Below, in pieces: positions 1-6,000 of a stretch of 64,000 bases of DNA. Location of the stretch: positions 53,025-117,024 of IMG/VR virus record IMGVR_UViG_2630968933_000007. One strand, written 5' to 3'. Within the stretch, counting starts at the first letter, position 1, and every line of letters begins with the position of its first letter. Origin of the DNA: a virus (Duplodnaviria; Heunggongvirae; Uroviricota; Caudoviricetes). Position numbers: made by a program.

Positions 1-3000
1 TCCGGTGCCTATGGCAATGATGGCGGATCGCTACTTCACCACCAAAAAGGACGGCAAAACTTACTACATTAAACTTCATGATCCGCGCCTGATGCGTGCG
101 ATGAAGAACATGGGGCCGGAAACCAGTAACGCCGTAATCCGTACGCTGGGGAAAGTTAACCGTTTCCTGGCAACGGTGAACACGTCGTATAACCCGGAAT
201 TTCTGGTCAGTAACTTCATCCGTGACGTGCAGACGGCGGTGATGAACCTGAAGGCGGAGCAGGGAAGGAGCGACGGTAAACTGAAAGGGCTGGATAACTT
301 ATCCGCCCTGGCTGTAGTCAAAGACAGCCGTTCTGCAATGTCAGCCGTGTACGCCAGTCTGCGTGGCAAAACCCTCACGGGCAAAGGCGCACAGTGGCAG
401 AAAGTGTGGAAAGAGTTTGTTGAGGACGGAGGTAAAACCGGCTGGTTTAACATGGGTGACCTTGAAGGCCAGAAGAAGGAAATGGATCGCCTTGTATCGC
501 TGGCGAAGGGAGGATGGAAAGGCCAGAGTATCGGTGCATGGCATTCGTTCCTGAACCTGGTCGAGGATGCCAACGGCGCGGTTGAAAACGCTCTGCGTCT
601 TTCTGCCTATAAACACGCCCGTGATGCCGGTTTGTCACGCCAGCAGGCGGCATCTCTTGCCAAAAACATGACGGTGAACTTTAACCGTCGTGGTGAGCAG
701 GGAGCGCTGATGAACTCGCTGTATATGTTTGCCAACGCCAGCATTCAGGGGACCGCAAACCTGGTGAGAACGCTCGGACATCTTAATGGCGACGGGCCGT
801 TACCGGAGCGCCTTCGCTGGAAGAATCTCAATGTACCGCAGAAAATCGCGCTTGCAGCTGTGGGAGCGGGTTATCTGCTTGGCTCGCTTAACCGCAGTGT
901 TGCGGGGGAGGATGATGACGGGGTTAACTGGTACGACAAGGTGCCGTATCATGTGAAAGAGCGTAACCTCGTCATTATGAAATCGATGTTCGGGGGCAGG
1001 GCCGGAGAGTACTGGAGTATTCCTCTGCCTTACGGGTACAACGTTTTCTTCCTGCTCGGGCATACCTCTGAAGGTGTGGCTGCTGGTGACCTGACGGCGT
1101 CCCGTGCTGCCGGTAATGTTGTCGGTGGTATCCTGGGGGCATTCAGCCCGATTGGCAGTGAGACGTCGGAAACGCTGTCCGGGGCATTGCTGAAAAATGC
1201 AGCACCGACAATTCTGCGTCCGTTTGCGAATCTTGCCATGAACGAAAACTTCATGGGGGCGCAGATTTACCAGGAGAACATGCCGTTTGGTACACCAAAA
1301 CCTGACAGCCAGCTGGGAAGACGTTCAACGCCAGAAGCGTACAAGGCGTTTGCATCCTGGCTGAATGCGTTCTCAGGTGGCAGCCAGTATCGTCCCGGCG
1401 CGGTGGATATCACACCGGAATCGCTGAAATTCTGGATTGACTATATCTCCGGAGGGACAGGGCGCTTCATTTCCAAAACCACAGATGCGGCGGTGAAATC
1501 GCTGAACGGTATTGATATACCGGAGCAGCAGGTGCCCTTCCTGGGGAAAATTTCGGGTGAGGTGATGCCGTATGCAGACCAGCAGAAGATGTACGACCGG
1601 ATGACAGAGGTTGCGCAGTATCACGCAGAGCTGAAGAGTCTGACCGGTGCAGAAAGAACGGCGTTCATTGACGAGAACAACGGAAAATTGTTGATGAACG
1701 GGCTTATGCAGGATACCCGGAAGAGACTGAAGGATTTGCGCAAACAGCGCGATGCCATTTATGCCGACAGTTCTCTCAGTCTGGCGCAGCAGGCGGCGAT
1801 GGTGAAATCGGTAGAGCGGGATATGAAGGTTGCCGTGGATCGCTTTAACCGCGAGTACAACAAAAAAGTGGGAGTGGATTAACAGAAATGGCCCCGTACG
1901 GAAGTGCGGGGCTGATTAAGAAATAAACACACATTAACCTGTAATAACCGGAGCTATTAACATATAGTCAGAAAGAGTATTTCATGTGAGACAGAGAGCC
2001 GATTTATGTTTAATGAAGAAAAAGTTGCGTAAATGGCAGCGTATTTGCTGAAAAAACATGGCGGATCTATGCGTTTCATTAAGCTGATGTATCTCTCTGA
2101 CCGCAAAGCAATGGAGTTGTATGGTTTTCCCATTAGTGGTGATCATTATTTCTCTATGAACAAAGGACCCGTTTTATCGCAGACATATTCTTTGGTTAAG
2201 GATGGAAGTGAAAACGAGTACAGTCCGTGGGAATCATGGATATCTGATGTAGCGGATCATAAGGTTGAAATGTGGCGTACATTTTCTTCTGTTGATGAGC
2301 TGGGGGAGTTATCGCCCGCAGAAATAGAGTCAATGGACATAATTTTTGGTCAATATGGAGGTTGGGATGCGTTCAGGCTTTGTGATGAAACTCACAGAAT
2401 TTGCGGTGAGTGGCGCGATCCGCATGGTTCATCAATTCCAATCAGCCTTAAGGATATATTTATTGCTCTTGGAAAGTCGCCAGAAGCAGCAACAGTAATG
2501 GCGAATAGCATTTATGCGCAAAATAATCTTGATATATTATTAAGTGATCTGAGGTAGTCGGGATGATGTTCAGCCCTTATTTGTATTTACCGGGGAGGGA
2601 AGATGTTTAATTCCGATTCCCCGGCTCCACAGGCCTAACCTAACTTTATGTAACAGTCCATGCAGGGCTGAAATCTGCCTGCTGAAATAACTCCGTTAGC
2701 CCGCTAATCTGCTTTAACCTCAGAACTTCATCCTGGTCCATCCCCAGTTCTGTTCCGATACGTTCATCAGTCCAGCCAAGACGTGAAAGATCTCTGACAA
2801 TATCAGACATTGAGGTTATCTGGTGTTTCCCCCTGGCTCTGTTATGTCGGATAGTCGCGGCAATACGTGAGGTTTGTCCCTTTCGGTCTGGATTAATACA
2901 GGTTACTGGTAGCCAGCCTTTCAGGCGTTTTCCAGTAACTGTTCTTCTACCTAGTAACTGCCTATGAAAACCATCCACCACCAGGTAATGGCTTGTTTCT

Positions 3001-6000
3001 TCCGAAACAACAATTGGTTGAGTAAAACCGTCTTTTTCCAGAGATTGTTTCAGTAATTTTTTTTCGCTTGGGGCCATGACATTGGGATTATAATCGTTAG
3101 CGACAATTTCATCCGCTTTTACCCACAGCACACAGTCCACTGGTTCTTGAGCAAAGGGGCTGATCTCATGGAGTACGCAGCGGAGATGGTTCAGGGCCTG
3201 TATGGTTTTCTCTTCAGATTGTTCCTGACTGAAGTACTGTCGAATCATCTTGCTCAGCACCTCCACCTCTGGTGTCACAGAATTCCCCATTCCTTCCTCC
3301 TTTCATTCATACGCTGCAGGTAACGTTCATAGTGCCGGGGTTTGTTGGGGCTGAAGGAGAGCGTTCGGCACCAGAAATCATTCTTTATGAGAGTCTTACA
3401 AATACGTCGCCAGGAGGGAACATCCCGGCAGCCCAGATCATTTTCCTGTTCATCCGGGATATCATCCGGGAATCCCCGGTTCTGATACCAGCGCAGGTAA
3501 ACTGCTATCTTGTTGCGGTAGTGTTCAGCCGTTCTTTCCGGCATTACGTCCAGCAGGAAGAACGCATAGCTGCGCCAGGTATGATGGGATGGTTTTGACA
3601 TCCGTTTACGCAGGGCAAAATAGGCCCCGCTTTCATTGGCATAAAGAGCCCCACTGGCAGCACCAGATACTCGTTCACACATCCGTGCCCAAGTTTCTGG
3701 CTCCAGAACATGATAAAGCCATAGTCCCTTACGCTGTTCCGGGCCAAAAGGCTCACAGACACGCATATTACGTAGAGGAATGCCTGCGCGGTACATCAAA
3801 TCATACAGAGGATTGTAGATTGCACAGGTTTTAGCGTTATATACCCAGATATCGTTGGTTTTCCAGTCATACAGCGGATACATGGTGTAGTAAAAACCTT
3901 CAGGTGACGCCGTGGTCCAGGGTTTATCATCTGCATATCTCAGTTTTCGTTGGGAAACCAGTCCCATAAATCTGTTAAGAGATTCATCCGCGCGGACTCC
4001 AGTCAGTATTGCCACGCTACATTGGTTACTTGCGAACCAGGAAGAAAAAGCCGGGACAAATTCTTCAAAAGTCATGGCGTAGCGGTAAAAGGGGAAATAC
4101 GCCATATCAGTAATAGCATCTTCCGGTGGCTGTCGAACCCACTCTACACCGGGCTCCCAGCATATCCACTCAGGCTGAAACTGCGAGACACCATTTACTG
4201 TCGTCAGGGGAAGTGCAACCCAGTAAAAGGTATCTGTTACATCTTGGTACATCATCCGCATCTTCTGTATATGATCAATGGTGCATTGATACTGGGCTTC
4301 CCAGTCAATGAACAATACAGAAAAACGACGTTTCTTCCTGTAGGCCACTTCGGCTACAAGATGGAAAAGTACAGTGGAATCTTTACCGCCAGAAAAAGAT
4401 AAACATACAGAAGAGAATGTTTCAAACAACCATTCAATGCGGTGAATGGCTGCTGACAAAACATCTTCTCCAGTTCTGATTTTTGTTATAGTTACCGGCA
4501 TACAATCTGATAAAAATAGCGAGGGTTTGCATTTTACCTAGTAACGTTATGTAACTATTTTTTTGAATAAAGGCAATGAGATAATGATAAAAAATGTTTA
4601 TCTAATGTACTGAGCTCTTCTCTTTATTGTATTAACTCTTCGATTTCAGCGGCGTTGTCGTTCAGGTATAAAAAAAGGAGCCGAAGCTCCTTTGGTATCA
4701 GAATTCAAATTGTCTTGCCCGCAGGCTTTTCAGCATTGGTCTGGCCCGCTGAACTACGAAACTCGACTGGTCAAGCCGTGCCGCCTCTCTCAGTAGCACA
4801 TCTCTGTTCTTCGTCACCATGTAGATAGTCTCAAACGCAATGTCATACAGCTTGTTCGTGTATGAGGAGTTCAGCTCTTTCATTATGGGGTACAGCTGCT
4901 TGCTAAGGTCCTGGGCTTTTTCCATCCAGAGCTGCATGTAGCAAAGGAGGATGATTTCCTCGGCTGTGAATTGCGGCTGTGGTTCTGCTTGTACTGGCTG
5001 AATGTTGCGAAGTTTCTTTTCGCACTCGATGAAGTAGCGGCGGATCTGGCGACCTTTTTCGTTACGTTCAACCATCGCAAGCTCTTTGGCTGTGTCGAGG
5101 GTGAGGTGGTAATCCTTGCGGCGGCGGCCTGGAGTTTTCGCCAAATTTGGCGAAAATAGAATGTAGTCTAAATTTTCTACGAATCCATACTCGTTTAGCC
5201 TGGCCCGTATCCAGTTAGAAAAATCTTTACCTACCTCTAAAAATCCATGCAAATCACGCGCGTTCACCAGAAGCGTAGGTTCATTTGAGATTGTACCTTC
5301 AAACACAGGGATGAGTTGAGTGGTCATGATGACCTCCTTTGGCTTTTTTCGAGAAATGCCACCACAAGATGTGGTGCCGGGAGGCTCGAAACGGCCCAAA
5401 AGATACCGCGGACTTATTCCCCTTGCGGGTGTTGTATTCGTCGCCCTCCCGACATTGATCGGGGATGTGACCGCACACTGTGCTATCACTGAATAACAGG
5501 CATAAAAAATCCAACACTGACGGGGTTGGTTTAATCCGCTTTTGGGAGGTTTTCGAGGCCTCGGCGCGGAGTATAGTCAGTATTGGACGCAGTCGTCAAC
5601 CATCGCAAGCTCTTTGGCTGTGTCGAGGGTGAGGTGGTATTCCTTGCGGTTGTGACCGCCTCTACCTTTTGCTTCCCGAATTTGGGAAGCAATCATATAG
5701 TCCTGATTTTCAACGAAACCATATTCAGCAATACGTTCTGTTATCCACGATGCAAAGCGTTTACCAACCCCAAGGAAAGCGTGTAGATTGCGAGCATTGC
5801 ATAGAAGGGCTGCTTGGTTTGAGATAGAACCGTTGAATACGGGGATGAGTTGACTGGTCATGATGACCTCCTTATTTGTTTAGTTTATAACCGCCAGTTA
5901 GTAGCTGGCGGTCGGGTGTCAACTGAGCCAAATAAGAAGCTCTGGGCATATTCCCCTTGCGGGTGTTGTATTACGCCTCTCCACCCGACCTTTGTACGGA

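Follow-up and report, generated by a model that had tools for sequence, protein, structure and literature searches.

The IbrA/IbrB gene pair of a PhiR5_2-type prophage: a possible nucleotide-driven, DNA-directed module for the activation of silent acquired genes

The stretch of DNA analysed here, referred to as the window, comprises 64,000 nt of the virus record IMGVR_UViG_2630968933_000007 and harbors the two-gene operon that is the subject of this study; coordinates are those of the whole window, and residue numbers those of the IbrA or IbrB protein. Two open reading frames (ORFs) on the minus strand occupy positions 2646-4501 exactly. The upstream gene, ibrA, at 3275-4501 (-), encodes a putative PP-loop ATP pyrophosphatase of 408 residues with a PAPS_reduct fold and a C-terminal DUF3440 domain, and the downstream gene, ibrB, at 2646-3290 (-), encodes a protein of 214 residues assigned to the ParB/Srx superfamily. 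An exact-sequence look-up returned the UniRef names IbrA (Q8KU24_ECOLX) and IbrB (Q8KU23_ECOLX), and the products of the window genes are these named proteins, a pair already known, and not merely IbrAB-like ones. The two genes overlap by 16 nt, and the ibrB ATG lies, with the Shine-Dalgarno sequence GGAGGAAGG directly upstream of it, within the 3' end of ibrA (junction at 3275-3299 (-)); ibrA and ibrB are thus taken to be translationally coupled. An earlier note on this DNA, made from the sequence alone, had proposed a coupled IbrA/IbrB-like pair at precisely this position, and both the coordinates and the identification were borne out. Its description of the genes as AT-rich was overstated: they are slightly so, with a GC content of 47.4% (ibrA) and 46.2% (ibrB) against 49.8% in the chromosomal part of the window, and strong AT-richness is confined to a leader of about 170 bp upstream of ibrA (4502-4673 (-), 31% GC), the presumed promoter region. 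This leader is located directly downstream of an intrinsic-terminator-like hairpin with a T-run (4674-4693 (-)), which is predicted to end the transcript of the preceding antirepressor gene antA and to insulate ibrAB. Overlapping ibrA and ibrB genes were reportedly cloned from strain ECOR-9 by Sandt, Hopper and Hill (J Bacteriol 2002) and are said to activate prophage eib genes jointly. A passage of PMC7649339, citing Sandt 2002, states that ibrB enhances Eib expression; in Shiga toxin-producing E. coli (STEC) adhering to epithelial cells, ibrB, perC and a neighbouring gene were co-induced 2-8 fold (PMC7649339).

IbrA gave matches to Pfam PAPS_reduct (E=1.5e-16, 61.3 bits, cut-off 22.5), to Pfam DUF3440 (E=5e-33, 114.8 bits, cut-off 25) and to PHROG 2302 (E=5.8e-86). 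The SGGKDS PP-loop, which the earlier note had already recognized as that of a PAPS-reductase-like enzyme, comprises residues 37-42 (codons at 4376-4393 (-)). Among 77 diverse full-length relatives, G39, K40 and S42 of this motif are invariant and its other residues are conserved in at least 90%. About 25 residues besides the PP-loop reach the same level of at least 90% conservation, among them D66, E68, T74, W112, W115, W121, R170, E173, S174 and R177 and, further downstream, D212, W213, D217, W219, Y229, N230, Y233, D234 and R247. Two relatives possess SGGKNS in place of SGGKDS; these, in which the aspartate of the PP-loop is replaced, may be inactive or altered variants. Ten relatives that are longer than IbrA did not yield any informative additional Pfam domain. 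No conserved cysteine was found in the 77 relatives, the best cysteine position being occupied in 45-49%. Since the family lacks a conserved cysteine, a reductase mechanism of the CysH type is excluded, as is the mechanism of DndC, which involves an Fe-S cluster and a persulfide. Accordingly, a function of IbrA as assimilatory PAPS/APS reductase (CysH) was rejected, as the scores also remained far below the cut-offs of the curated models (32.9 bits versus 154 for CysH model NF002537 and 31.2 versus 254 for TIGR02057; the CysD model gave 33.9 versus 195). The identity to CysD, to FMN adenylyltransferase (the PAPS domain of FAD synthase) and to CysH/APS reductases amounts to 16-22%, with NCBIfam scores far under the cut-offs, and IbrA differs from these enzymes by the lack of a catalytic cysteine, by the extra DUF3440 region of 170 residues and by its obligate ParB-like partner. 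The RefSeq product name 'phosphoadenosine phosphosulfate reductase' describes the fold only; another database label applied to IbrA is 'auxiliary metabolic gene'. Judged from its sequence, IbrA is predicted to be an enzyme of the ATP pyrophosphatase or adenylyl-transfer type with a PAPS-reductase fold and an intact PP-loop.

For IbrB, the score against Pfam ParB_N was 18.9 bits and thus under the threshold of 26.3, whereas PHROG 2159, 'ParB-like partition protein', was matched at E=4.9e-91. A family profile built from 19 diverse relatives finds solved structures of ParB and Noc, in their N-domains, at E values of about 1e-6 and, more weakly, SbnI (E=1.7e-3) and free serine kinase, SerK (E about 0.3). 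In 69 dereplicated loci, the positions N65, N68-P69-N70, D106-G107-x-H109-R110 and N150-(R151)-A152-x-G154 are invariant or nearly so and mark the three family motifs, ANDYNPN, DGxHR and NRARGxH. The second of these is DGFHR in IbrB (residues 106-110, codons at 2961-2975 (-)), of which D, G, H and R are invariant, and represents the family's version of ParB box II. Box III appears as HNRARG within TIRHNRARGKH (residues 146-156, codons at 2823-2855 (-)), a basic signature loop specific to the IbrB family in which H156 is conserved in 97%. A C-terminal helix-turn-helix (HTH)-like segment follows at residues ~161-197 (2700-2810 (-)); it is more than 90% conserved in the 69 loci and, across phyla, as conserved as the motifs of the N-domain. 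The assignment of IbrB to the ParB/Srx type is based on PHROG 2159, on the ParB/Noc profile matches and on the invariant DGxHR and NRARGxH motifs, and supports the ParB/Srx-type motif that had been read in the downstream gene beforehand. Of the profile searches suggested in the earlier note, those with PAPS_reduct and DUF3440 exceeded the gathering score, while ParB_N did not.

A canonical ParB partition or CTPase protein was rejected as an identity for IbrB because of the subthreshold ParB_N score, the lack of GERRxR and ENxxR boxes and the lack of an adjacent parA gene. DGFHR resembles GCHR of sulfiredoxin and DGQHR of DndB; it suggests that IbrB may bind nucleotide or take part in phosphotransfer and may not form the canonical CTP clamp. 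G-F-H-R of IbrB aligns with the G-C-H-R type motif of Srx, but the matches to Srx, SerK and SbnI are weak, the Srx cysteine is missing and IbrB has the additional C-terminal HTH-like segment. Shigella VirB and RK2 KorB are ParB-type nucleotide-binding HTH proteins of mobile elements that alter the expression of silenced or plasmid genes. IbrAB resembles them in that its output is gene activation; IbrB has DGFHR in place of their CTP-binding GERR box, the NRARGxH loop in place of ENxxR and, unlike VirB and KorB, is always accompanied by an enzymatic PP-loop partner. IbrB, at residues 56-189, is also similar to the ParB portion of phage proteins in which ParB is fused to a DNA methyltransferase (PHROG 498, E=8e-9). 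This similarity suggests a ParB module that serves a DNA-modifying catalytic partner, which in PHROG 498 is a fused S-adenosylmethionine-dependent methyltransferase and in the case of IbrB a separate PP-loop enzyme.

The two proteins are encoded together almost without exception. Of 48 loci from viruses or phages, 47 have a same-strand gene of the IbrB family adjoining ibrA. The same holds for every one of the 75 informative loci in a set of 80 from genomes; this set covers Enterobacterales, Bacillota, Bacteroidota, Actinomycetota, Planctomycetota, Lentisphaeria, Vibrio plasmids, Rickettsiales, Helicobacter and others. The gene order is ibrA followed by ibrB in 73 of 74 pairs scored by adjacency, usually with an overlap of 1-28 nt, and a full scan of 1.84 billion representatives returned 317 relatives of IbrA at E<=1e-30. 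Across many phyla, phages and plasmids, IbrA and IbrB thus constitute an obligate module of two genes. Two apparent fusions of the two genes turned out to be fragmentary gene calls and were dismissed. Clustering of the neighbours in 123 loci did not reveal a third universal gene. A total of 103 likely co-operonic neighbours, drawn from 78 dereplicated loci, fell into 62 families, the best 25 of which were listed. The sole recurrent family among these neighbours is that of SNF2 helicases, with 12 members in 12 of the 78 loci; its gene frequently precedes ibrA and is translationally coupled to it, as seen in Bacteroidota, Clostridia, Proteobacteria and two phages. Clostridia, Azoarcus and one deltaproteobacterial metagenome-assembled genome have, between ibrA and ibrB, a gene for a GNAT acetyltransferase of 118-139 residues, two of these proteins scoring above the Pfam threshold. 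The operon SNF2-ibrA-GNAT-ibrB occurs in two loci (L100 and L122, with the GNAT gene at 9271-9690 and 9230-9640, respectively), and the ibrA-GNAT-ibrB arrangement is also found in L117-L120, L124 and L125. The co-operonic neighbours also include three with matches to type II methyltransferases and a small number of homing endonucleases. Immediately upstream of ibrA, 14 loci from metagenomic viral contigs, Bacillota and actinomycetes have an ORF of a family of about 130 residues without a Pfam match. A QueC-like small PP-loop gene accompanies the pair in a single locus, and a YadA_anchor-containing neighbour that had once been flagged was not located in two follow-up scans.

In the window, ibrAB sits at the right-hand end of a prophage. 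Escherichia phage PhiR5_2, at its right end, and the prophage that E. coli strain G1/2 carries in ynfG both share 100% identity with positions 1-6289. The mobile element proposed in the earlier note is therefore real, and it is a lambdoid prophage of the 933W/Stx type without stx. The genome of PhiR5_2, a phage propagated on MG1655, has 61.5 kb, and the deposited sequence ends at window position 6289. The insertion in ynfG splits the ynfEFGH operon, and the window from 6401 on consists of ynfF, ynfE and chromosome; a remnant of a 4Fe-4S protein is annotated at 6307-6390, just beyond the phage end. Sandt et al. (2002) reportedly described an 'IbrAB island' homologous to an Stx2 prophage and to antirepressor genes, bordering the chromosome near 35.8 min. 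This map position, that of ynfE/F, agrees with the window. In this prophage, ibrAB is a moron of the lysogen type, having its own leader and being transcribed in the direction opposite to the late operon; the position at the end of an Stx-like prophage is ordinary for E. coli.

The neighbours that had been proposed on either side, a Panacea-domain gene and an antirepressor gene, were both recovered by Pfam. Convergent with ibrB is a SocA_Panacea-domain gene at 2033-2557 (+) (E=2.4e-19). Panacea domains normally are those of antitoxins paired with a toxin; adjacent to this gene no toxin-like ORF was found, and it looks like an orphan or like a gene whose partner is located elsewhere. On the other side lies the AntA/P22_AR_C antirepressor gene at 4698-5489 (-), for which the RefSeq start is 5327. 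Next to it, at 5577-5861 (-), is a second gene of the AntA type, so that the antirepressor genes stand in tandem, the distal copy being an N-terminal fragment of 94 residues. Further to the left, a gene of 8.4 kb for a giant polyvalent protein with LPD38 ends at 1882, and its C-terminal part is at 5-1882 (+); the gene is intact in the phage record, but its annotation in strain G1/2 shows a frameshift. Two copies of a unit with the palindrome CAAAGCTTTG, scored as a 17-bp hairpin, are present at positions 6195-6234, some 55 bp inward from the right phage end, and these repeat units might be an integrase or arm-type site.

The earlier note had compared the pair with the enzymes of DNA sulfur modification and of 7-deazaguanine systems. 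Formally, the combination of a ParB-superfamily protein possessing DGxHR and a PP-loop enzyme of the PAPS-reductase fold is that of DndB, with its DGQHR motif, and DndC, and DpdB is a ParB-like protein as is IbrB. That ibrAB literally represents a phosphorothioation system similar to Dnd or Ssp, or a 7-deazaguanine system similar to Dpd, is nevertheless extremely improbable. DndC requires a cysteine triad that binds a 4Fe-4S cluster and a cysteine dyad for sulfur relay (PMC10853773), and neither the triad nor the dyad was found in IbrA, no cysteine exceeding 49% in the 77 relatives. The DndC model TIGR03183 scored 17.8 bits on IbrA against a cut-off of 290.4. Genes for dndA/iscS, dndD and dndE were detected neither in window positions 1-6289 nor among the best 25 of the 62 neighbour families, and among the latter SspA-C, a cysteine desulfurase, TGT/DpdA and QueC/D/E were not observed either; the window does not contain genes for SspA-C, TGT or QueC/D/E. 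Thus, the similarity to DndB-DndC exists at the level of the fold only, and the analogy drawn in the note did not withstand comparison. On the basis of the window and of the 25 neighbour families listed, membership of ibrAB in the Dnd, Ssp, Dpd or BREX type 4 systems was rejected.

In the note, the pair was also considered as an anti-phage cargo of the prophage. Its location among the accessory genes of a prophage, next to a Panacea-domain gene, would be in line with such a role, and a 2026 preprint lists genes for PAPS-reductase and ParBc proteins beside nucleoid-protein sensors as candidate 'PANGU-like' systems, which is a lead and not evidence. PADLOC returned a partial match of the N-terminal part of IbrA to BrxP (28 bits, 80 of 779 profile positions) and weak, partial ones to DndC (E=4.5e-5). 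However, these are partial PP-loop matches only; PADLOC 2.0 gave no match for IbrB and no system for the pair, and the co-operonic neighbours produced only generic SNF2 matches to the models of DrmD, ZorD and DpdE. A nuclease, toxin or membrane effector that recurs beside ibrAB was not present among the best 25 of the 62 families. In addition, the pair is present in phage isolates, including lytic ones, and has a silent paralogue in the core genome of essentially all E. coli. We therefore regard a defence function as very unlikely. From the broader suggestion of the note that the pair is DNA-targeting, a DNA-directed activity remains plausible in view of the ParB-type N-domain, the HTH-like segment and the SNF2 genes in 12 of 78 loci, while the parts concerning sulfur-type modification and defence found no support.

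The paralogue mentioned above, ybdN-ybdM (b0602/b0601), was found by a low-stringency search in 5420 of 5426 complete E. coli genomes at 63% nucleotide identity; over the full length of the proteins, IbrA and YbdN are 57% and IbrB and YbdM 61% identical. The two loci have in common the two-gene architecture, the gene order, the overlap and all family motifs. In contrast to the mobile cargo ibrAB, which is preceded by an AT-rich leader of its own and lacks a neighbouring LysR gene, ybdNM is a core locus beside ahpCF-dsbG with a dedicated LysR repressor. The order ahpF-ahpC-dsbG-citR(ybdO)-ybdN-ybdM-ybdL is maintained in synteny in 16 other enterobacterial species. Sulfiredoxin repairs peroxiredoxins, and ybdNM, which in E. 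coli HB101 was inspected at 3365-6236 of the extracted locus, lies beside dsbG and the genes of the AhpCF peroxiredoxin system, while IbrB belongs to the sulfiredoxin fold superfamily; this may be a coincidence. A sulfiredoxin-like repair of AhpC by ybdNM is only remotely possible, as the synteny is limited to Enterobacteriaceae and IbrB does not have the Srx cysteine. CitR (YbdO), which is itself regulated by H-NS, represses ybdNM, and deletion of citR raised ybdN 5.5-fold and also elevated the flagellar and cys regulons (PMC9068703). Full-text literature searches retrieved annotations only and no mechanistic paper on IbrA/IbrB or ybdNM, and a publication of 2022 states that 'YbdM is completely uncharacterized' (PMC8764527), consistent with what the earlier note had said about the biochemistry of the pair.

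The increase of the cys regulon upon derepression of ybdNM in the citR mutant (PMC9068703) and the synteny with ahpCF-dsbG would also be compatible with a substrate other than DNA. IbrAB might modify tRNA or other RNA, or might make or consume an adenylylated small molecule, and thereby affect gene expression indirectly; the chemistry envisaged would be an adenylyl transfer similar to that of CysD or FMN adenylyltransferase combined with a phosphotransfer similar to that of Srx or SerK. The closest folds adenylylate small oxyanions (sulfate in the case of CysD, FMN in that of FAD synthase), many PP-loop relatives such as TilS, TtuA and NcsA act on tRNA, the IbrB profile reaches the small-molecule kinases SbnI and SerK, and the C-terminal segment of IbrB, being near-invariant, hints at a universal partner. 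However, the SNF2 partners as translocases on double-stranded DNA and the ParB/HTH architecture point to DNA, a tRNA-binding domain (THUMP, PUA) was not detected by Pfam, and the arguments from the cys regulon and from synteny are indirect and concern one bacterial family only. On balance, a non-DNA substrate appears quite unlikely to us.

The mobile copies of ibrAB are common. By megablast, 1930 of the 5426 complete E. coli genomes contain copies with 80-90% nucleotide identity, and by blastn about 2055 of the genomes have a near-full-length copy; in all, approximately 38% of complete E. coli genomes have an island, prophage or plasmid copy, at up to six places per genome, some of these on plasmids. 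The pair is carried by 736 plasmids, of which 323 are from Klebsiella. On the one Klebsiella plasmid inspected, the K. pneumoniae IncFIB/HI1B virulence plasmid pKP30086-1, ibrAB with 91% identity (6977-8838 of the extracted locus) is located directly upstream of iroBCDN. Similarly, on the inspected E. coli IncF plasmid pRHB23-C18_2 (7001-8856 of the extracted locus) the pair adjoins a K88-like fae fimbrial operon and a gene with an EAL domain. Not all of the inspected copies are in prophages: in an O157/O113 island, a regulator of the PerC family is encoded just downstream of ibrAB, and in an ST131/CE10 island the pair is found beside a TonB-dependent receptor and the yaiP/yaiO polysaccharide genes. 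In the island copy of the meningitis strain E. coli CE10 (6624-7836 of the extracted locus), ibrA is frameshifted and ibrB intact, which shows that island copies can decay.

By tblastn, 220 phage isolates were found to have homologues of IbrA, their hosts being Flavobacterium, Mycobacterium, Streptococcus, Arthrobacter, Bacillus, Microcystis, Faecalibacterium and others. Several of these phage groups are strictly lytic, and the lytic phages include those of Flavobacterium, the cluster-B mycobacteriophages and Brussowvirus of S. thermophilus. The phage genes close the replication module, adjoin terminase or portal genes, or separate the lysis genes from the early region, and some phages have a second ParB-like gene beside the ibrAB homologues. 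An Ant antirepressor gene is located near the homologues in two cases, S. thermophilus phage CHPC1230 and Lactobacillus phage AQ113, as it is in the window. A role in the packaging machinery, considered because of the location beside terminase in some phages, was dismissed, as the pair is also present in non-phage islands, plasmids and the core genome. The occurrence in phages is better explained by a self-protective, anti-restriction mark: IbrAB would covalently mark the DNA of its own carrier, be it a phage, a plasmid or an island, so that this DNA escapes restriction or DNA-sensing immunity of the host, and gene activation would be a side effect. In addition to the 220 phages, some of them lytic, and the frequent location beside terminase or portal genes or in the replication module, this explanation is favored by the SNF2, GNAT and methyltransferase operon partners, by the fusion of ParB domains to phage DNA methyltransferases and by the position of the pair in the window beside the gene for the injected-type polyvalent LPD38 protein. 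On the other hand, no carrier is one with a known modified base, a silent core ybdNM and up to six copies per genome would be odd for a mark by which an element distinguishes itself, and the copy in the PhiR5_2-type prophage is transcribed from its own leader against the late operon as a lysogen-type moron. Taken together, we consider an anti-restriction mark unlikely, although it fits the phage distribution better than an activation of silent genes; the two explanations are compatible.

Our preferred, if tentative, explanation, about which doubt still slightly outweighs confidence, is that ibrA and ibrB encode a nucleotide-driven, DNA-directed enzyme pair which switches on silent horizontally acquired genes. 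According to this model, IbrB would bind to DNA in a nucleotide-dependent fashion and recruit or activate IbrA at this position. IbrA would then spend ATP, releasing AMP and pyrophosphate, to adenylylate and thereby covalently alter a target in the DNA or the nucleoid, a step that would proceed without sulfur. As net effect, the silencing of AT-rich, horizontally acquired genes by H-NS-type proteins would be relieved. Circumstantial support is provided by the SNF2, GNAT and methyltransferase partners, the match of the N-domain to PHROG 498, the paralogue controlled by H-NS and a LysR regulator and the AT-rich leader; equally circumstantial is the proximity of ibrAB copies to loci of acquired origin for adhesins, siderophores and regulators (iroBCDN, K88-like fae, perC).

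Several points weigh against such a switch. The structural models provide little help, since the AlphaFold2 model of IbrB is unreliable (pLDDT, the predicted local distance difference test score, of 48) and the C-terminal domain of IbrA is poorly modelled. For a sequence-specific regulator, the near-invariance of the HTH-like segment of IbrB would be unusual, and a partner that is itself conserved, whether protein or RNA, would account for it equally well. Adjacency to virulence loci was observed in a handful of inspected contexts, and the linkage to SNF2 concerns about 15% of the loci and could in part reflect the gene order of phage replication modules. Finally, some strictly lytic phages have the pair beside terminase and portal genes, for which the activation of silent lysogen genes is not obviously an explanation.

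In its most far-reaching form, the activation model can be extended to a biochemical class. It might be speculated, and we regard this as doubtful, that IbrA/IbrB and YbdN/YbdM represent a new, cysteine-independent class of ATP-driven nucleic-acid modification enzymes. In these, the ParB/Srx subunit would load on DNA, aided by SNF2 in some lineages, and the subunit with the PAPS-reductase fold would adenylylate a DNA group; the resulting mark would be left in place or, via GNAT in some lineages, passed on, both lifting xenogeneic silencing and shielding mobile DNA.

The gene pair is common in E. coli and on plasmids, and its current label as 'PAPS reductase' is contradicted because the IbrA family has no conserved cysteine. 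The comparative results narrow the range of possible chemistries by this lack of a conserved cysteine, by the obligate nature of the module, by the SNF2 and GNAT partners in some lineages, by the core paralogue and by the lack of a match to described defence systems; the question of what chemistry ibrAB performs extends to the core genes ybdNM. If the pair indeed acts as a switch for silent acquired adhesin, siderophore and prophage genes, ibrAB would bear on the regulation of virulence, and if a DNA mark is written as well, this would constitute a new kind of epigenetic or anti-restriction chemistry.

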